DNA of 20,450 nucleotides from the NCBI GenBank assembly GCA_018818405.1, contig JAHIRY010000041.1, positions 1 to 20,450 of the forward strand. Reading direction: 5' to 3'. The notes beneath the pieces were generated by a model. That model was not told the origin of the DNA and made no database searches. It was given only the letters and a program-made list of their open reading frames with translations. Position numbers and translations under genes: made by a program. Shown piece by piece: positions 3,411-20,437 of the stretch (position 1 is the stretch's first letter; every line of letters starts with the position of its first letter). Origin of the DNA: Patescibacteria group bacterium (GTDB lineage: Bacteria; Patescibacteriota; Patescibacteriia; UBA11705; JABHMO01).

Positions 3411-3477
3411 TAACATTCCGTGTAAAAATCGGAACTTGAATTTTGACAACAGAATTACGAAAAAAAGGAGGGGCAAA

Positions 3478-4245
3478 ATGGAAGATGCAGGAACAACAGC
3501 ATTGCTTTTGGCGGATTTCATTGCCTGGTATGGCATCGGATACAGCATTTCCCTTATTTTTGGAATAATGTTTACCGGGCTCGCCGGCATGGGAATCGGC
3601 GGGGAACATGACATTGACCACGATATTGACCACGATATTGACCACGACATTGATCACCATATCGGACATGACATTTCGCATGAGGCGGAGCATAACGCTC
3701 ATTCCGGAGACGGAGCGGGCGCTTCTCCTTTCAATCCGATCATGGCAGTTCTTTCTCTCGGGGGAATCGGGAAATACCCGCTCTCGATCGTTATGATGAT
3801 TTTTCTTTTCCTGTTTTTCGGCGCCGGAATTGTATCGATTTTCGGAATGAAATCATTTGGTTTGAATCTGACGGATTGCGGCTGGATTGCCTATGCGGCA
3901 AACTTTATCGCAACCTATTTTTCCACCGGATTAATTGCCGGATTGCTGCACAAATACATGCCATTGCACGAGAAAGAAACAACTTCAAAGGAATCTCTCC
4001 ATGGGAAAATCGCCAAGGCATTGTATTCTTTTGACAGTGAAAAGGGAATGGGATTTATTCATGTATACACGGATCGCAACGCGCTGATAGACGCACGCGC
4101 CCGAAACCTGGAACCGGATCAACCCATCAGGGCAAACCAGGATGTGATCATTGTCGCCTGGGACAAGGAGAATCAATGGTATGAAGTCGCGCCAATTTCA
4201 GAAGAAGATCAGCGACAGCTGGAACCGCGGGGTCAATCCCGCTAA
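3478..4245 (+). CDS. NfeD-like membrane protein (short NfeD/YuaF type) with an inserted His/Asp-rich repeat; partner of the downstream flotillin.
   Basis: RBS aggagg at 3463-3468, ATG at 3478. Two hydrophobic blocks are followed by a C-terminal beta-rich domain (GKIAKALYSFDSEKGMGFIHVYTDRNALIDARARNLEPDQPIRANQDVIIVAWDKENQWYEV) typical of the NfeD OB-fold. It lies immediately upstream of an SPFH/flotillin gene, the classic nfeD-floT/yqiK arrangement. Confidence 0.75.
   Translation: MEDAGTTALLLADFIAWYGIGYSISLIFGIMFTGLAGMGIGGEHDIDHDIDHDIDHDIDHHIGHDISHEAEHNAHSGDGAGASPFNPIMAVLSLGGIGKYPLSIVMMIFLFLFFGAGIVSIFGMKSFGLNLTDCGWIAYAANFIATYFSTGLIAGLLHKYMPLHEKETTSKESLHGKIAKALYSFDSEKGMGFIHVYTDRNALIDARARNLEPDQPIRANQDVIIVAWDKENQWYEVAPISEEDQRQLEPRGQSR
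3604..3675 (+). repeat. Six tandem 12-bp coding repeats (gaccacgatatt-like) encoding an (E/D/G)-H-(D/H)-I tetrapeptide repeat inside NfeD.
   Basis: Units fall at 3604, 3616, 3628, 3640, 3652 and 3664. The translation is EHDIDHDIDHDIDHDIDHHIGHDI, followed by SHEAEHNAHSGDG. Confidence 0.9.
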
Positions 4246-6454: not shown

Positions 6455-7174
6455 ATGACGGATTTTCTGGAAGAAATCGATCTGGTTCCGCTTTTGGATT
6501 TTTATGACGAGCTCGATATTCCGGTCATCTTTATCAATGACGGAAACAAAATGCTGATTCTCGAAAACATGGATGAAGTGGAAAATTTCTGCAGGGGATT
6601 GCCGGAAGAACTGCTCGAATACGCATTGGAGATACGGAAACTGGCGCATGATTATGAACTGATGCGTGATTTTGAAGAAATAATGGAGAATCTCATGAGG
6701 CTCGATTCCGCAGAGACCGTTGAAGCAACGATGAGCGTTTCATTGAAGTATGATGAAACAGGTCTTCATTCGCTTCCGCTCTGCCGTCTTTCACCTAAAG
6801 ACAAAACGATTTATTCTCCGCCGCCGCTGATTTCCTTGGATCAAGCTTGGACGATGTTTAAATTTTTGATCGAGGACGGCAAGATGGAGACAGCGGAATG
6901 CGTTTCGCTGTTGCAGGAAATGAAACAAATGGGGATACCTCTCGATCGAAAGGCAATCGATTCGCATCTGGCGCAACAGCCGCCGAGCGCATTGGAAAAT
7001 TTCGAAGAATTTAACCGCAGGGCAACCGCAGAGGCACTGGAGATCATTACAAAAGCAATCCGCCAGAACAATGGCTCGGAAAAACAGCTGACAACGACGG
7101 CTGTAAAAAATGAAACTCCGGATCTTGATTCAATTCCTGAAATCAATTCCCGTCCGCCGAACGGGATCAATTGA
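6455..7174 (+). CDS. Acidic hypothetical protein, paralog A; C-terminus IPEINSRPPNGIN.
   Basis: RBS aggagg at 6443-6448, ATG at 6455, TGA stop at 7172-7174. It is homologous over its whole length (~35-40% identity by eye) to the next gene. No recognisable domain. Confidence 0.8.
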   Translation: MTDFLEEIDLVPLLDFYDELDIPVIFINDGNKMLILENMDEVENFCRGLPEELLEYALEIRKLAHDYELMRDFEEIMENLMRLDSAETVEATMSVSLKYDETGLHSLPLCRLSPKDKTIYSPPPLISLDQAWTMFKFLIEDGKMETAECVSLLQEMKQMGIPLDRKAIDSHLAQQPPSALENFEEFNRRATAEALEIITKAIRQNNGSEKQLTTTAVKNETPDLDSIPEINSRPPNGIN

Positions 7175-7182
7175 AACAATAC

Positions 7183-7207
7183 AAACGGCCGCAACGCGGC
7201 CGTTTTA
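7183..7207. terminator. Bidirectional hairpin terminator after paralog A.
   Basis: cggccgc (7186-7192), loop aac, gcggccg (7196-7202), then TTTT. An A-run lies on the 5' side. Confidence 0.7.
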
Positions 7208-7257
7208 TACTATTCAAAAATATTCCTTTAATCGAATACTCCCTGTAAGCTGTCGGT

Positions 7258-7323: not shown

Positions 7324-8025
7324 ATGAAAAGCTTTCTGGATGAAATTCAGCAACTTCCGCTATTTGCACTCTATGATGAAATGAAACTCAATATTCTATA
7401 TATAGAGGGAAGTAATGGACTTCATATCCTCGAAGCCATGACCGAAGTTGAGGTCTTTTGCCAAAGAGTGGAAAAAGAAAACCCGGAAGTGGCGGAGGAA
7501 ATTAGGAGCCTTGCAGTTGCTCACCCTCTGCTGGCAAATTTTGAAGAAATTCTGGAACAAATACTGCAGATAGAGCTGCCTAAAAAAATTTGCGCCGGGA
7601 CTCGCGTTCTCAGGTACTCGGACGAGAGGGGACTTTATTCACTGCCGCTGGCCGTTCTCGCCTCCCCGAAAGATATAAGTCGTCACTCCCCTCCCATGAT
7701 TTGTCTGGAACAAGCATGGTTTGTTTTCAAAAATATGATTGCGGAAAAAATGTTGACGCCGATGGAATGCATCGCGCATATTCAATCCATGAAAAAAATG
7801 AATCTTCCGCTTGATCGCAAAGAGATTGACGCCTATCTGGCGCAACAACCGCCAATCGCCATGGAAAAATTCAAAAAATTTTTGAAACAACTTACAGCCG
7901 CCCGTGATGATGGTTTCCGCCATAAGATGGAAAAACAGGAAACTTTGCCGGCGCCGGAAAACAAACAACCGGACATTTCTCAAATTCCCGAAATCAATTC
8001 CCGTCAGCCGGACGGAATCAATTGA
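7324..8025 (+). CDS. Acidic hypothetical protein, paralog B; C-terminus IPEINSRQPDGIN.
   Basis: RBS gaggagga at 7311-7318, ATG at 7324, TGA stop. It shares conserved blocks with paralog A (FEEI, LHSLPL/LYSLPL, SPKD, LDQAW/LEQAW, PLDRK.ID..LAQQPP, IPEINSR.P.GIN). Confidence 0.8.
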   Translation: MKSFLDEIQQLPLFALYDEMKLNILYIEGSNGLHILEAMTEVEVFCQRVEKENPEVAEEIRSLAVAHPLLANFEEILEQILQIELPKKICAGTRVLRYSDERGLYSLPLAVLASPKDISRHSPPMICLEQAWFVFKNMIAEKMLTPMECIAHIQSMKKMNLPLDRKEIDAYLAQQPPIAMEKFKKFLKQLTAARDDGFRHKMEKQETLPAPENKQPDISQIPEINSRQPDGIN

Positions 8026-8034
8026 ACCAAAAAC

Positions 8035-8059
8035 AAACGGCCGCAACGCGGCCGTTTTC
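8035..8059. terminator. Bidirectional hairpin terminator shared by paralog B (+) and yidD (-).
   Basis: cggccgc (8038-8044), loop aac, gcggccg (8048-8054), TTTT at 8055-8058. The sequence is identical to the terminator after paralog A. Confidence 0.7.
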
Positions 8060-8075
8060 TAATATCTCAAAAATT

Positions 8076-8336
8076 TTATTTCACCGGATCATTTCCGCCT
8101 TTTGAAAAAGGATTGCAACGGAGAATTCTGTAAACGCCGAGCAGTCCGCCCCTGAAAACGCCGTATTTTTCAATCGCGCGATAGGCGTATTCCGAACAAG
8201 TCGGATGAAATCGGCAATATCCGCCGGGAAACATTTCCTTGAAAATTCCGTGATCAAAGGACAGCGTCTTCTGATAAAATCGAATACAGCTCATGGCAAC
8301 GACTCGCGGATAATATTTAAACACTTTTATAATCAT
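8076..8336 (-). CDS. yidD: Membrane protein insertion efficiency factor YidD.
   Basis: [41 protein letters not shown] is the YidD signature (C.F.PTCS.YA..A....G...G..L...R..RC.P). Position immediately downstream of rnpA is canonical. The alternative start at ATG 8294 (MSCIRFYQ..., 73 aa) would remove the 20-nt overlap with rnpA. Confidence 0.85.
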
Positions 8337-9423: not shown

Positions 9424-9617
9424 ATGACGATGAATGCTAAAATCAGCATAAGCGGGAATCAGGGCTCAGTCAGCAAGGAGCAAAGAGCACCATTCATATA
9501 ACATGTAGCGTGTAACACTTTTTGTAGAGGCGGGTTGCACCCGCCTAATCCGGTGAAAAATGCGAAATCCTTAATTTCGCAATAATAATCCGCCTGCCCC
9601 GCACGCTGCGGTGGTAA

Positions 9618-9653
9618 ATTCGTAACATTCGTAATATTTGTAAATTCGTAACC
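9618..9653 (+). repeat. Four phased 9-bp direct repeats (ATTCGTAAN) immediately upstream of the dnaA start.
   Basis: ATTCGTAA at 9618, 9627 and 9645, and ATTTGTAA at 9636, with exact 9-bp periodicity. The array ends 34 nt before the dnaA ATG. Confidence 0.85.
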
Positions 9654-12492: not shown

Positions 12493-12523
12493 GAAAACGG
12501 TTTTTTTTACAGAAGAACCGTTT
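12487..12523 (+). terminator. Second hairpin plus T-run after dnaN.
   Basis: aacggtt ... aaccgtt stem followed by tgtttt. Confidence 0.5.
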
Positions 12524-12638: not shown

Positions 12639-12688
12639 CGGATTTATGAGTAGTGGCGGGTCTAGACCCGCCACTACTCATAAATCCG
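12639..12688. repeat. Perfect 50-bp palindrome (25+25) centred on TCTAGA.
   Basis: cggatttatgagtagtggcgggtct|agacccgccactactcataaatccg with no mismatch. There is no flanking U-run on either strand. Confidence 0.95.
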
Positions 12689-12780
12689 CGGATGCCGTTC
12701 GTTTGAAAGATTAAAAGAAAAAGGCGGGGAGTTTGTTCCCCTCGCACAAAAATCATTTTAATTCCCGAAGATAATCGGAA

Positions 12781-12812
12781 ATAAAAAAAACACGGAAGAA
12801 TTCCGCGTTTAA
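12781..12812 (-). terminator. Rho-independent terminator of the tRNA-Gly/tRNA-Leu transcript (minus strand).
   Basis: Minus-strand sense aaacgcggaattcttccgtgTTTTTTTT. Confidence 0.65.
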
Positions 12813-12903
12813 CAATTTCATCTTCGTATATTATGAATGGCTTGCCATGAAGTCACGCAAACTTCGCTTATCCGTGATTTTCAGTTTAAAAGCGTGTACT
12901 TCA

Positions 12904-12990
12904 TGGTGCCGCGGGCCGGAATCGAACCGGCACGGATTTGCATCCGCAGGATTTTAAGTCCTGTGTGTCTACCAGTTTCACCACCGCGGC
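12904..12990 (-). tRNA. tRNA-Leu (anticodon TAA).
   Basis: 87 nt. Acceptor gccgcgg/ccgcggc, anticodon arm cagga-cttaaaa-tcctg, 15-nt variable arm cggatgcaaatccgt, T-arm gccgg-ttcgatt-ccggc, encoded CCA. Confidence 0.92.
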
Positions 12991-13005
12991 TCGCGTTTTG
13001 AATTC

Positions 13006-13079
13006 TGGAGCGGGAGACGGGATTCCCTTCGATGCGACTCAGGGTCGGCTTCTCATCCTCTTTAAAATAAAACTTCTTT
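13006..13079 (-). repeat. tRNA-trailer insertion element: conserved ~54-nt core followed by a 20-nt direct copy of the tRNA-Gly 3' end (incl. CCA).
   Basis: 13006-13025 (tggagcgggagacgggattc) is identical to tRNA-Gly 3' end 13080-13099. The core 13026-13079 is homologous to the cores of the tRNA-Lys-associated repeats at 20121-20361. Confidence 0.8.
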
Positions 13080-13155
13080 TGGAGCGGGAGACGGGATTCG
13101 AACCCGCGACCTCAACCTTGGCAAGGTTGCGCTCTACCAACTAAGCTACTCCCGC
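13080..13155 (-). tRNA. tRNA-Gly (anticodon GCC).
   Basis: 76 nt. Acceptor gcgggag/ctcccgc, anticodon arm caacc-ttgccaa-ggttg, T-arm gcggg-ttcgaat-cccgt, encoded CCA. Confidence 0.92.
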
Positions 13156-13194
13156 AAATATTTGATAAAAGGTGTAAATATTGTATCAAAAAGT

Positions 13195-13225
13195 ATTATA
13201 TAGTCAATATTGAAAAAAGAAAAGA
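13195..13225 (-). promoter_or_regulatory. Candidate promoter for the tRNA-Gly/tRNA-Leu operon.
   Basis: Minus-strand TATAAT (rc of 13195-13200) lies ~40 nt upstream of the tRNA-Gly 5' end. TTGACT (rc of 13203-13208) is too close to be its -35, so the -35 element is unclear. Confidence 0.3.
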
Positions 13226-19427: not shown

Positions 19428-19523
19428 TTTCGGATAGTCGTTTACTAAGCTGGCGTTATAAAAGATTTACTTTTATAGAATTGTCGAATGGCCTGCCATC
19501 CGAAGCTCCCGCGGAGCGTAGGA

Positions 19524-19600
19524 TGGTGGACCCTAAGGGATTCGAACCCTTGACCTCTTCCATGCCATGGAAGCGCTCTAGCCAGCTGAGCTAAGGGCCC
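19524..19600 (-). tRNA. tRNA-Ala (anticodon GGC).
   Basis: 77 nt. G3:U70 wobble in the acceptor stem (gggccct/agggtcc), anticodon arm cttcc-atggcat-ggaag, T-arm aaggg-ttcgaat-ccctt, encoded CCA. Confidence 0.9.
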
Positions 19601-19702: not shown

Positions 19703-19945
19703 TTAAATCAGTCTTTTGTTCCGAAAAGCAATGCCTGATGATGTTTTCAAATATTTTTCAAAAGCAGATGCTTTCTTTTTGTCGGTGAAGGCACAATGGT
19801 AAAGTATTTTCCAAGGGCGGAACCTGTTTGTATGCGCAGACTTTCCTTTATTGTGTTCTTCCAATCGGTTATCAATGTTTTCTGAAAAGCCGGTATATAG
19901 TTGTTTAGGAGAATTGATGCTTTGGATGATGTAGACGAAATACAT
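19703..19945 (-). CDS. Small GIY-YIG nuclease-superfamily protein (UPF0213/YhbQ-like).
   Basis: MYFVYIIQSINSPKQLYTGFSENIDNRLEEHNKGKSAHTNRFRPW matches the GIY-YIG core (Y.VYI......LYTG.T.....R...H..G..A..T....PW). 80 aa. Confidence 0.8.
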   Translation of the reverse strand: MYFVYIIQSINSPKQLYTGFSENIDNRLEEHNKGKSAHTNRFRPWKILYHCAFTDKKKASAFEKYLKTSSGIAFRNKRLI

Positions 19946-20120
19946 TCTTTAATAACTTATTATTGGAAAATCGATACCCCTTTTTCTCTGCGCGAGTTTT
20001 TTTTAGTTTTGTTTGATGGCTTGCCATTCGTAGCGCAGCCATTTTAAAACAACTAAACAAGGAAAAATTTCAGCCCTTCTTCGCTGAAGCTACGAAGGGC
20101 ATTCTTCGCTGCGCGAAGAA

Positions 20121-20361
20121 TGGCGGGCGCAGAGGGACTCCCCTCGGCGCGGCTCGGTGCAGGCTTCTCGTCCCTCTTTTTCAATAAAATCTTTTGTGTT
20201 TGGTGGGCGCAGAGGGACTCCCCTCGGCGCGGCTCGGTGCAGGCTTCTCGTCCCTCTTTTTCAATGAAACATTTTTGTGTTTGGTGGGCGCAGAGGGACT
20301 CCCCTCGCGCGACTCAGGGCAGGCTTCTCGTCCCTCTTTTTCAATGAAACATTTTTGTGTT
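20121..20361 (-). repeat. Three tandem ~80-bp direct repeats, each a 20-nt copy of the tRNA-Lys 3' end (incl. CCA) plus a ~60-nt conserved core, abutting the tRNA-Lys gene.
   Basis: Units 20121-20200, 20201-20281 and 20282-20361 all begin tgg(t/c)gggcgcagagggactc, the reverse complement of the tRNA-Lys 3' terminal 20 nt. The unit nearest the tRNA is the best conserved. They generate the spurious + ORFs 20120..20347 and 20194..20403. Confidence 0.9.
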
Positions 20362-20437
20362 TGGTGGGCGCAGAGGGACTCGAACCCCCGGCCAAGTGCT
20401 TAAGAGGCACCTGCTCTACCGACTGAGCTATGCGCCC
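20362..20437 (-). tRNA. tRNA-Lys (anticodon CTT).
   Basis: 76 nt. Acceptor gggcgca/tgcgccc, D-arm gctc-agtcggta-gagc, anticodon arm ggtgc-ctcttaa-gcact, T-arm ggggg-ttcgagt-ccctc, encoded CCA. Confidence 0.92.

Follow-up and report, generated by a model that had tools for sequence, protein, structure and literature searches.

The 74-nt unit that directly follows the CCA of a tRNA-Gly gene in this contig is probably a single RtT-like tRNA-trailer repeat, that is, a small non-coding module that sits directly 3′ of a tRNA gene and shares its strand. The unit was identified at 13006-13079 on the minus strand of the window (the whole 20,450-nt stretch analysed) from alignments and from a covariance model, R1, built from seven family members, which it matches with 66.4 bits (E = 1e-16). 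Judged from its sequence, this unit in the Gly-Leu spacer would be a miniature, previously uncatalogued relative of the RtT repeats (Rfam RF00391).

The duplicated tRNA 3′ end and its locus

All four tRNA genes found in the window by ARAGORN are carried on the minus strand and encode their CCA: tRNA-Leu(UAA) (12904-12990), tRNA-Gly(GCC) (13080-13155; 73.7 bits with the Rfam tRNA model), tRNA-Ala(GGC) (19524-19600), and tRNA-Lys(CUU) (20362-20437). Neighbouring genes encode a SpoU methylase, RuvB, and DnaN. The remaining spacer between the unit and tRNA-Leu (12991-13005, minus strand; GAAUUCAAAACGCGA) is the 5′ leader of tRNA-Leu and has the 15 nt first reported for it. Co-transcription of tRNA-Gly and tRNA-Leu, as proposed in the preliminary description, is plausible from the sequence, since the only promoter-like site (TTGACT-16-TG-TACAAT, 13180-13207, minus strand) is upstream of tRNA-Gly and terminator-like hairpins are present only after tRNA-Leu, such as that with a U run at 12788-12810 (minus strand); both are consensus matches only. 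In such a presumed Gly-unit-Leu transcript, tRNA-Leu would be the downstream gene. The terminator scan found no intrinsic terminator inside the unit on either strand.

The proposed duplication of the tRNA-Gly 3′ end is exact. The segment at 13006-13025 (TGGAGCGGGAGACGGGATTC on the plus strand) is identical at 20 of 20 positions to its template, the last 20 nt of tRNA-Gly (13080-13099, minus strand). The identity stops sharply on either side, and within the window these two places are the only ones with the 20-mer. In the tRNA sense it reads GAAUCCCGUCUCCCGCUCCA and comprises the last four bases of the T-loop, the 3′ strand of the T-stem, the 3′ strand of the acceptor, the discriminator, and CCA (tRNA-Gly nt 57-76).

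The similarity reported between the 54-nt core and the trailer units of tRNA-Lys was likewise borne out by formal alignment. Three tandem units follow tRNA-Lys(CUU) on the minus strand (20282-20361, 20201-20281, and 20121-20200; array 20121-20361), all of which end in the Lys 20-mer, the last with one mismatch (GCCA). The Gly core is identical to them at 43/54, 40/54, and 41/54 positions, with global alignment scores of 27, 22, and 23, against 3.1 +/- 1.7 in 2000 shuffles (z = 11-14). Model R1 finds exactly four copies in the window, one at 13006-13070 and three within 20121-20345. An independent assembly with 99.93 % identity, L002, contains the same solo Gly copy.

Comparisons with relatives whose SpoU proteins are 64-71 % identical support an insertion rather than an ancient spacer. 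Their syntenic Gly-Leu spacers are 27-75 nt long and contain neither a duplication of the 20-mer nor the core, and R1 has no match in approximately 150 kb of syntenic sequence from these relatives. Because the orthologous spacers of four related genera (L004, L007, L010, and L132) are without the element, it is taken to be a lineage-specific gain. Copy number also differs between strains: there are three Lys units in the window and one in the near-identical L002, and one Arg unit in L002 compared with at least two in L127, differences that arise between sequences 99.9-100 % identical. The window and L002 part exactly at the 3′ end of tRNA-Leu, so rearrangements in this genome do occur at tRNA 3′ ends.

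Anatomy and fold of the unit across different tRNAs

The core is found after tRNA-Gly(GCC), tRNA-Lys(CUU), tRNA-Arg(UCG), tRNA-Pro(CGG), tRNA-Cys(GCA), and tRNA-Gly(UCC), each time with the 3′ end of that tRNA, so the element is indeed not Lys-specific. The Arg copy is in the 99.9 % identical strain L002, the Pro copy in a probably related genome, and the Cys and Gly(UCC) copies in other metagenomic contigs. New members were found with a pattern that is silent on the 3′ half of the unit, and all have the cognate tRNA 3′ end and a matching arm. All known copies are recovered by R1, with 66-83 bits. A metagenome match on a high-GC contig (L131, 25.9 bits, no nearby tRNA) was left out of the family as doubtful. 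Among the matches listed (at least 100) in a scan of genome contigs with the pattern GAGAAGCCNNNNCYGAN{1,6}YCGCN{2,4}GARRGG, there were chance coding matches in high-GC genomes and no true member; pattern scans of viral contigs returned E-D-E-K-P coding matches or nothing.

In each unit an A-rich linker is followed by an arm of 7-9 nt that is the Watson-Crick complement of cognate tRNA nt ~59-66, the invariant GAGAAGCC, a short 4-bp hairpin (P2) topped by an invariant GA...GA with a variable loop, and finally the exact copy of the cognate tRNA 3′ segment, which begins at T-loop nt 57-59 and runs to the CCA (nt 57-76). The GA...GA pair of motifs probably forms tandem sheared G.A pairs. On the minus strand of the Gly unit, the A/U-rich linker AAAGAAGUUUUAUUUUAA (13062-13079) is homologous to those of the Lys, Arg, and Pro units. 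The arm AGAGGAU (13055-13061), the 5′ strand of P1, complements the copied AUCC(CG)UCU, giving a P1 of 4 bp, a 2-nt bulge, and 3 bp; it is the least perfect arm in the family and resembles the Pro arm, AGAGGAC. The internal-loop motif GAGAAGCC (13045-13054) occupies invariant alignment columns, with an added GA in the Gly copy and UG in the others. P2 (13025-13044; stem CCCU/AGGG, loop GUCGCAUC) is supported by RNAalifold and by pair counts. Within the copied tRNA end (13006-13025), 13015-13023 forms the 3′ strand of P1 and 13006-13014 an unpaired tail ending in CCA. The tRNA-specific arm and the resemblance to RtT were absent from the preliminary description.

In every family copy the arm and the 3′ end both match the local tRNA, which constitutes covariation. 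In the covariation set of seven CPR sequences, four of them found through a pattern that fixes GGAY of the arm, 91 % of P1 cells are paired compared with 76 % when the 3′ ends are shuffled among sequences, a value of 91 % being reached in none of 500 shuffles. Double changes are seen in five of the eight P1 pairs, slid registers drop to 36-55 %, and the cognate combination of arm and 3′ end gives the longest pairing run in its row for 5/7 tRNAs. P2 was predicted independently by RNAalifold and is 96 % paired, with double changes in three of its four pairs, including the compensatory UGCU:AGUG of the Gly(UCC) copy. On the tRNA-sense strand there are six G.U cells and, outside the terminal pair, one A.C cell, which comes from the bulged Gly(GCC) copy. 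The predicted family-conserved fold has the copied T-stem strand paired to the upstream arm and leaves the acceptor strand and NCCA single-stranded. Single-unit folding gave no indication of stability (Gly unit, z = +0.67; Lys units, z = -0.64 to +0.03), and the minimum-energy fold of the Lys units is a different local hairpin. From its sequence, one way to read the unit is as an antisense T-arm opposite a sense T-arm.

This arrangement does not sustain the suggestion that the unit presents a second CCA-ended pseudo-acceptor to RNase P/Z-type processing. The unit has no partner for the copied acceptor 3′ strand, which the conserved fold leaves single-stranded together with the NCCA. A minihelix is available as an alternative only in the Lys copies and, from reading its sequence, the Pro copy, and not in the Gly copy; because of this restriction it is not a family feature. 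Genes that encode their CCA belong to the class of tRNAs not matured by RNase Z.

Other identities were considered for the unit. Neither ARAGORN nor the Rfam tRNA model detects a tRNA in it, and the core aligns to tRNA nt 1-56 no better than shuffles do, so it is not a degenerate tRNA copy. The only match of the element among 4227 Rfam models is a sub-threshold one to RtT. Hammerhead, box C/D, and K-turn motifs were rejected: GAUGAG...CUGA was checked by eye and required positions are missing, the hammerhead core CUGANGA...GAAA is absent by eye, and no Rfam ribozyme model matches.

Comparison with RtT and other known elements

The 178-bp repeats of the tyrT-tyrV operon of E. coli were reportedly described by Egan and Landy in 1978 and by Bosl and Kersten in 1991. 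The rtT RNA of the tyrT operon is reported to be a by-product cut from the tRNA precursor, and in E. coli and related bacteria RtT repeats come after tRNA-Tyr and tRNA-Lys. RtT has stood as an orphan of this operon for over 40 years and, to our knowledge, no function has been established for it. RtT RNA, or rttR, corresponds to these 178-bp repeats (PMC3318445) and is reported to be expressed (PMC4147364) and to be structured, carrying a tandem GA motif and having covariation support (PMC7657543).

The element described here shares much of this architecture. Both sit immediately after a tRNA, on its strand, as single units or tandem arrays, and both end in an exact copy of the cognate tRNA 3′ end including CCA, of 20 nt here and of 19 nt (Tyr) or 18 nt (Lys) in RtT. 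In both, the copied 3′ strand of the T-stem has its pairing partner in an arm further upstream (in the Gly unit with its 2-nt bulge), and GAGAA(G/C)C, in the form GAGAAGC in RtT and in the element, comes directly after the arm. The tandem GA motif reported in RtT has its counterpart in the GA/GA of P2. The E. coli tyrT units consist of the arm GGGGAAGGAU, GAGAAGC, further sequence, and the Tyr 19-mer, and genuine RtT units exchange arm and 3′ end with the tRNA, Tyr or, in Providencia, Arsenophonus, and E. coli lysV, Lys, keeping the interior. For example, arm and end are GUGCAGG-U / AUCCUGCAC after tRNA-Lys(UUU) of Providencia (97.5 bits) and GUACAGGAU / AUCCUGUAC after that of Arsenophonus (94.1 bits), a compensatory change between the two.

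The differences are in size and range. The unit is 74-85 nt long here compared with about 130-178 nt in RtT, and its interior is 19-28 nt with one 4-bp hairpin, whereas that of RtT spans ~77 nt, has three helices, and includes the tpr ORF. The A run is lacking from E. coli RtT units. The hosts of the element are Patescibacteria and other uncultured bacteria, and it is associated with at least six tRNA identities, compared with two seen for RtT. Against a gathering threshold of 45 bits for RF00391, the Lys units score 22.6-23.9 bits, below threshold, whereas true RtT units score 52-137 bits (52.2 bits for the E. coli lysV unit). The model has no match at E <= 10 to the solo Gly copy or to the Arg, Cys, Pro, and Gly(UCC) copies. 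Weak model matches between the two families are reciprocal, the reverse match having 18 bits (9 bits with filters off). Because its score falls short of the Rfam threshold and its interior differs and is much smaller, the element is set apart from RtT, though akin to it; homology between the two is at most putative.

Other short elements are less similar. The 3′ETS RNAs, such as 3′ETS-leuZ of E. coli, are also freed from a tRNA trailer by tRNA-processing nucleases, as would be the case here. These are stable, unique, and unrepeated RNAs that base-pair with sRNAs and do not contain a copy of the tRNA 3′ end, whereas the element is repeated and ends in such a copy. REP/BIME, Correia, and ERIC sequences are likewise short, non-coding, hairpin-forming, polymorphic in copy number, and patchy, but they have no link to tRNA 3′ ends and neither copy nor complement a neighbouring gene. 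As in tRNA minihelices and tRNA-like 3′ structures, the 3′ end of the element is the tRNA acceptor 3′ strand plus NCCA; the acceptor 5′ strand, however, is missing and the T-loop is replaced.

Alternative origins, spread, and possible role

It is unlikely that the unit is neutral, having arisen when slippage or strand switching at the tRNA T-arm hairpin duplicated part of the tRNA 3′ region in both inverted and direct orientation, and then persisting and being amplified by unequal crossing-over without RNA function. In that case the arm complementarity would be a by-product of the origin or of quasi-palindrome correction. The 5′ half of the unit does read as an antisense T-arm. In the tyrT-proximal RtT, GGGGAAGG and GAACCUUCGA are colinear with the reverse complement of tRNA-Tyr nt 56-77, only the 4 nt between these blocks differing, and the E. 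coli lysV unit keeps AUUCGAAGC, an unmodified antisense T-loop, where others have AUGAGAAGC. Polymorphic copy number, the extension of the duplicated segment through the terminator in L130 and E. coli lysV, and the absence of the element from close genera also fit this origin. However, GAGAAGCC and the two GA dinucleotides are invariant while loops and linkers have diverged, and there are compensatory changes in P2, which in the Cys copy is not tRNA-derived. The G.U pairs favour the tRNA-sense strand, the derived GAGAA is common to Patescibacteria and Enterobacterales, and RtT has covariation support in the literature (PMC7657543).

A mobile element acting at the DNA level, MITE-like or hairpin-recognized, is improbable. 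Here the arm and T-stem would form a hairpin in single-stranded DNA, a recombinase or HUH-type transposase supplied in trans would act at the GAGAAGCC box, and the 20-nt repeat would be the target duplication. The patchy distribution, the multiple insertion sites of one kind (tRNA 3′ ends), the conserved core with inverted-repeat termini, and the strain differences in copy number speak for it, but there is no transposase or recombinase in any locus with the element. The gene for a small GIY-YIG nuclease does adjoin the Lys array, yet GIY-YIG genes are also present in the element-free relatives L004 and L010. A target duplication of 18-20 nt that always starts in the T-loop does not resemble those of known transposons. 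In addition, one "terminal repeat" would be inside the duplicated target, and the G.U pairs and GA/GA motifs are RNA features.

Direct repeats of the 3′ part of a tRNA are said, by Williams in 2002, to be a signature of integrases. From the T-loop onwards they are the classical mark of integrase insertion (PMC9897764), and the boundary here, as at the att borders of islands and prophages, is in the T-loop. An integrase could thus have duplicated the tRNA 3′ end as attL and attR, the island having since been deleted to 54 nt, and the divergence of the window and L002 exactly at the tRNA-Leu 3′ end is in keeping with this. We consider such a scar very improbable and the reading largely refuted. 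The same 54-60 nt core is present at six different tRNAs with matched 3′ ends, which is not true of att borders, and independent decay of different islands cannot give one conserved structured core. Equally foreign to att borders are the tandem arrays and the arm complementary to each tRNA. No integrase is encoded near the Gly or Lys locus in the window, and between the full tRNA and the partial copy there are 54 nt only and not a kilobase-scale element. In the phage collection, RtT-type cores and the Gly unit have no match, and the plasmid-collection matches inspected are all chromosomal loci deposited as plasmids.

That the unit is a plus-strand terminator, with P1 and then a T-rich run (the complement of the linker; ...GTCCCTCTTTTTC after the P1 hairpin in Lys units and ...ATCCTCTTTAAAA in the Gly unit) shielding the tRNA genes from dnaN read-through, is scarcely credible, as the terminator scan has no plus-strand site inside the unit, the loop would be ~38 nt, the T runs are interrupted, E. 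coli RtT units have no A run, the G.U pairs turn into A.C mismatches on the plus strand, dnaN has its own terminator-like hairpin (12495-12523), and the solo unit is between tRNA-Leu and tRNA-Gly and would therefore leave tRNA-Leu unshielded.

For the preferred reading, an RtT-like trailer unit, we infer that transcription starts at the putative promoter ahead of tRNA-Gly and covers tRNA-Gly, the unit, and tRNA-Leu. In the RNA, the arm would pair with the copied T-stem 3′ strand as P1, P2 would stack inside, and the acceptor strand and NCCA would form a single-stranded 3′ tail. The nucleases that mature tRNA ends would cut the unit from the precursor as a by-product RNA of ~75 nt, as reported for rtT RNA. 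Less confidently, and from the junction positions only, spread may be by copy-choice or gene conversion at CCA on the left and at GA(A/G)UCC of the T-loop and T-stem on the right, microhomologies that every tRNA would offer. As the right patch is upstream of the left in the recipient, nt 57-76 would automatically be duplicated. Selection for P1, or quasi-palindrome correction, could then adapt the arm to its new tRNA, and unequal recombination between the 20-nt repeats would lengthen or shorten the arrays. Template switching of this kind would predict recently occupied tRNAs at which the arm still fits the donor tRNA, and the likeness of the Gly arm AGAGGAU to the Pro arm AGAGGAC may hint at this.

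Such junctions suggest a general route by which tRNA 3′ ends may be duplicated without integrases, through template switching at CCA and the T-loop. In practice, these units cause metagenome assemblies to break at tRNA genes, and one may misread them as att sites or tRNA fragments. As for the role, our best guess is that the unit acts in cis as a processing or insulator module, or mimics the tRNA 3′ end, rather than being a coding or DNA-level element.

It is a tentative proposal, and at present an unlikely one, that RtT and the mini-element make up one widespread superfamily of "inverted T-arm" RNAs with a real function at the RNA level, able to retarget itself to any tRNA through the arm and the 3′-end copy. 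If so, these RNAs might be decoys or mimics of the uncharged tRNA 3′ end for readers of NCCA, such as 3′ exonucleases, the CCA-adding enzyme, or RelA-type sensors, or alternatively a cis-acting licence for precursor processing, and the invariant GAGAAGCC loop with the GA/GA hairpin would be a putative protein-binding site. RtT and the mini-element alike have an arm and a 3′ end that change with the adjacent tRNA, and in both GAGAAGC(C) is kept. The same architecture in a much smaller module, in Patescibacteria and other uncultured bacteria and with at least six tRNA identities, gives a new handle on RtT, and its minimal consensus (P1, GAGAAGCC, a GA-closed P2, and an NCCA tail) is open to mutation and probing.

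A trailer unit between tRNA-Gly and tRNA-Leu

The four tRNA genes of the window all lie on its minus strand: tRNA-Leu-UAA (12904-12990), tRNA-Gly-GCC (13080-13155), tRNA-Ala-GGC (19524-19600) and tRNA-Lys-CUU (20362-20437). As reported in the preliminary description, 13006-13025 is identical at 20/20 positions to the tRNA-Gly 3′ end at 13080-13099. The identity stops sharply at either end, and this 20-mer (tRNA sense GAAUCCCGUCUCCCGCUCCA, tRNA-Gly nt 57-76) is found at only these two sites within the window. The similarity claimed for the 54 nt between the copies was confirmed by alignment to the three units of 80-81 nt that follow tRNA-Lys (20121-20361, minus strand), with 43/54, 40/54 and 41/54 identities and scores 11-14 standard deviations over shuffles; the distance to tRNA-Leu is 15 nt, as stated there. 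The arrangement recurs in L002, an independent assembly of a 99.93 % identical strain. Together, the duplicate, core alignment, 15-nt gap and recurrence therefore establish a real feature.

Annotation of the SpoU/TrmH protein identifies the host as a Patescibacterium, with Falkowbacteria and Kuenenbacteria as nearest named relatives. The locus is within the dnaA-dnaN region, and the gene order RNase III, dNK, SpoIID, RuvB, SpoU ... dnaN, dnaA is conserved in relatives with SpoU 64-71 % identical. The syntenic Gly-Leu spacers of four relatives, of 27 nt (L010), 55 nt (L004), 65 nt (L132) and 75 nt (L007), all lack the 20-mer duplication and the core, and a covariance model had zero matches in them. 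The unit was thus gained in this lineage, supporting the insertion, rather than ancient spacer sequence, on the comparison that the preliminary description had named. Copy number varies among sequences that are 99.9-100 % identical (Lys, three in the window versus one in L002; Arg, one in L002 versus at least two in L127), differences that may be due to assembly collapse of repeats.

A promoter-like site, TTGACT-16-TG-TACAAT (13207-13180), is upstream of tRNA-Gly and terminator-like hairpins are downstream of tRNA-Leu, with neither type of site inside the Gly-Leu spacer. It is therefore plausible from their placement that tRNA-Gly, the unit and tRNA-Leu share one transcript, as described previously.

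From 20220 to precisely the last base of tRNA-Leu (12904; L002 10890), the window and L002 agree at 99.93 % identity; beyond it they have nothing in common, the window going on to dnaN and L002 to a terminator and an ORF of 158 aa that is rich in GC. The break is either an island or rearrangement at the tRNA-Leu 3′ end or a chimeric assembly. The dnaN-tRNA-Leu intergenic region also contains a long perfect palindrome, GGAUUUAUGAGUAGUGGCGGGUCUAGACCCGCCACUACUCAUAAAUCC (12640-12690).

Unit anatomy, family members and covariation

Every unit examined has the same order of parts on the tRNA strand: an A-rich linker starting directly after the CCA of the tRNA; an arm of 7-9 nt; invariant GAGAAGCC, then UG, for which the Gly copy has GA; CCCY; a variable 6-15-nt loop flanked on both sides by GA; RGGG; and an exact duplicate of the cognate tRNA that begins at T-loop nt 57-59 and extends through CCA. 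The arm is complementary, by Watson-Crick pairing, to copied tRNA nt 59-66, a stretch made up of the final two bases of the T-loop, the 3′ strand of the T-stem and the first base of the acceptor.

The earlier suggestion that the element is not Lys-specific is borne out, as the same unit type follows tRNA-Gly, Arg, Cys and Pro, each with the cognate 3′ end. L002 has an Arg-specific unit behind tRNA-Arg(UCG). A metagenome pattern scan, in which only the end of the linker, the GGAY within the arm, GAGAAGCC and CYGA were fixed, returned 14 loci, five of which are real members at four distinct tRNA sites, in low-GC non-coding DNA and each adjoining a tRNA. These are Cys-GCA units (L119 and L121; arm GACCGGAU, copied strand AUCCGGUC), a Pro-CGG unit (L120; AGAGGAC and GUCCUCU) whose array runs to the contig end, an Arg-UCG unit (L127) with the arm and copied strand of L002, 100 % identical to it and including the start of a second unit, and a Gly-UCC unit (L130; GACGGGAC and GUCUCGUC, with one G.U) in which CCA is not encoded. 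In L130 the duplicated segment continues through the trailer and terminator.

In the seven-sequence alignment, the helix of arm and copied T-stem strand (P1) is 91 % paired, versus 76 % with 3′ ends shuffled among sequences (0/500 shuffles reach 91 %). Both sides have changed at 5/8 pairs, and sliding the register reduces pairing to 36-55 %. RNAalifold on this alignment independently recovered P1 and a second helix, P2 (CCCY:RGGG), which is 96 % paired; in the Gly-UCC copy its strands have changed in a compensatory way to UGCU:AGUG. Both invariant GA dinucleotides are placed so that they could cap P2 as tandem sheared G.A pairs. On the tRNA-sense strand there are six G.U cells and, outside the terminal pair, one A.C cell, from the bulged Gly-GCC copy, a tally that leans towards structure on the tRNA strand. 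Single-sequence folding of the units showed no excess stability and the Lys units preferred a local hairpin; support for P1 and P2 therefore comes from comparison across seven to nine independent contexts, not from energy.

The weakest P1 of the family is that of the Gly solo copy (AGAGGAU versus AUCC-CG-UCU). A single base separates its arm from that of the Pro unit, and its loop matches that of the Lys unit closest to the tRNA, which would fit import from another tRNA, only partly re-matched.

Comparison with RtT and neighbouring repeats

The sole Rfam family touching the element is RtT (RF00391), at 22-24 bits on two Lys units against a threshold of 45 bits, with no match on the Gly, Arg, Cys and Pro copies. 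This alignment is still instructive because it brings the arm, GAGAA and tRNA 3′ end into register. RtT has been described as one repeat unit of the tyrT operon (PMC3318445) and as an RNA backed by covariation, with a tandem GA motif (PMC7657543); it is expressed in Klebsiella (PMC4147364), which has the same locus as E. coli tyrT-tyrV. The E. coli tyrT-tyrV locus contains four true RtT units (133-137 bits), each with GGGGAAGGAU, GAGAAGC, an interior of ~77 nt and the tRNA-Tyr 19-mer. Units over the threshold are also present behind tRNA-Lys(UUU), with Lys-specific arms and ends, in Providencia alcalifaciens (97.5 bits; arm GUGCAGG-U, end AUCCUGCACGACCCACCA), Arsenophonus nasoniae (94.1 bits; arm GUACAGGAU, end AAUCCUGUACGACCCACCA), where an arm G-to-A offsets a tRNA C-to-U, and E. 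coli lysV (52.2 bits; arm degenerate). The known RtT family therefore already behaves like the Patescibacteria element: the interior is conserved, and the arm and 3′ end are swapped with the tRNA. Agreement was weak in the reverse search, in which a model from the Patescibacteria copies found three of the four E. coli units through P1 and GAGAAGC at 18 bits (E ~0.03; 9 bits with filters off). We conclude from this comparison that the element probably works like RtT, with the same architecture. It is outside RF00391 as currently defined, and common descent and convergence are both candidate origins.

The RtT 5′ half is near the reverse complement of the tRNA T-arm. In the tyrT-proximal unit, the blocks GGGGAAGG and GAACCUUCGA follow the reverse complement of tRNA-Tyr nt 56-77 colinearly, and only the 4 nt between them differ. 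RtT also carries a copy of the T-stem 5′ strand and T-loop in the sense orientation (Tyr AAGGUUCGA, Lys CAGGUUCGA), and the lysV unit retains AUUCGAAGC where other units have AUGAGAAGC. From this colinearity and the lysV sequence, GAGAA(G/C)C resembles an antisense T-loop (UCGAACC) that has been modified. The unit in Patescibacteria may likewise be read as antisense T-arm, loop, sense T-arm without nt 54-56, acceptor strand and CCA; its core does not come from the 5′ two-thirds of the tRNA. In L004, a relative without the element, the tRNA-Arg trailer (2687-2720) is a terminator hairpin, AUAGAC-GAGAAG-GUCUAU, with a U run; its identical GAGAAG loop may be coincidence or relic.

In Providencia, the stretch upstream of the Lys-type RtT unit contains a degenerate tRNA-Lys-like pseudogene (L141 1225-1300), flanked by the two tRNA-Lys(UUU) genes; a weak YrlA (Y RNA-like) match of 35.9 bits, below threshold, falls in this region. 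A 75-aa ATG ORF runs antisense through the Lys array (20120-20347, plus strand); its product would be a repeated peptide and it is probably spurious. A small annotated ORF (tpr) overlaps RtT in E. coli too.

A second, different trailer family has a hairpin directly after CCA, with a 3′ arm of ...GAAUGG or ...CAUGG, then CNNGCCAU, that pairs back onto the acceptor end and NCCA of its own tRNA. It is present on the minus strand at 12826-12912, 19478-19532 and about 20010-20120, and elsewhere at L007 12330-12385, L132 2583-2632, L119 2185-2240 and in L010 after tRNA-Arg and tRNA-Lys. Of the five hairpins tested, four gave much better folds than shuffled sequences (z = -3.7 to -4.9); the L119 hairpin is weak (z = -2.1), with a different fold. 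This family occupies the Gly-Leu spacer in several relatives and is also present behind the final pseudo-CCA of the RtT-like Lys and Cys units. Its hairpins flank an 80-aa GIY-YIG nuclease ORF (19703-19945, minus strand) between the Lys array and tRNA-Ala; small GIY-YIG homologues adjoin tRNA-Ala or tRNA-Arg in relatives (L004 3009-3266, L010 858-1190).

Just upstream of dnaA is a 42-nt repeat (9597-9638, plus strand; CCCGCACGCUGCGGUGG hairpin and UAAAUUCGUAAC...AUUCGUAAU), found twice at 97 % identity in L120, the tRNA-Pro element contig (9488-9529 and 9549-9587), suggesting that L120 comes from this genome or a sister one and that there is a further small repeat family. Two neighbouring paralogous ORFs (6455-7174 and 7324-8025) have repeated 3′ ends and terminator hairpins (7078-7237 versus 7929-8089, 73-78 % identity), and ORF 3436-4245 contains a 12-nt tandem repeat, CCACGAUAUUGA x 5 (3606-3666).

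Proposed expression, spread and alternatives

Beyond the demonstrated anatomy, covariation, lineage-specific presence, copy-number polymorphism and RtT parallel, the unit would be transcribed along with its tRNAs and fold into P1 and P2, leaving the acceptor-strand-NCCA tail free, and tRNA-maturing nucleases would release it as a small RNA. The rtT RNA has been reported as a small RNA released in this way. A second CCA-ended pseudo-acceptor for RNase P/Z, as previously proposed, is not supported because the acceptor 5′ strand is missing, the T-stem strand is taken up in the conserved fold and CCA is encoded in the tRNA genes.

The left border of units is always CCA and the right border always nt 57-59, the start of conserved GA(A/G)UCC. 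More tentatively, spread might involve two template switches or a conversion tract at these microhomologies, inserting linker, arm and core and automatically duplicating nt 57-76. The arm could later be re-matched through selection for P1 or quasi-palindrome correction, and arrays might be built and collapsed by unequal recombination at the 20-nt repeats. The strongest rival, that units are neutral by-products of strand switching and no more, accounts for origin and dynamics but leaves the invariant GAGAAGCC, GA/GA and compensatory P2 unexplained. A DNA-level MITE-like element fits poorly, being without an enzyme and a poor match to the RNA-type features, and an antisense terminator is not supported. 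Reading the duplication as the att-site scar of an integrated element fails: the size is wrong, the core is common to several tRNAs, the arm is present, and no integrase or phage link was found.

The element is instead a new miniature variation on RtT-type tRNA-trailer repeats, carried by uncultured bacteria behind tRNAs of many identities. While it reveals no new principle, an old unexplained RNA, RtT, gains from it a minimal consensus and a comparative handle.
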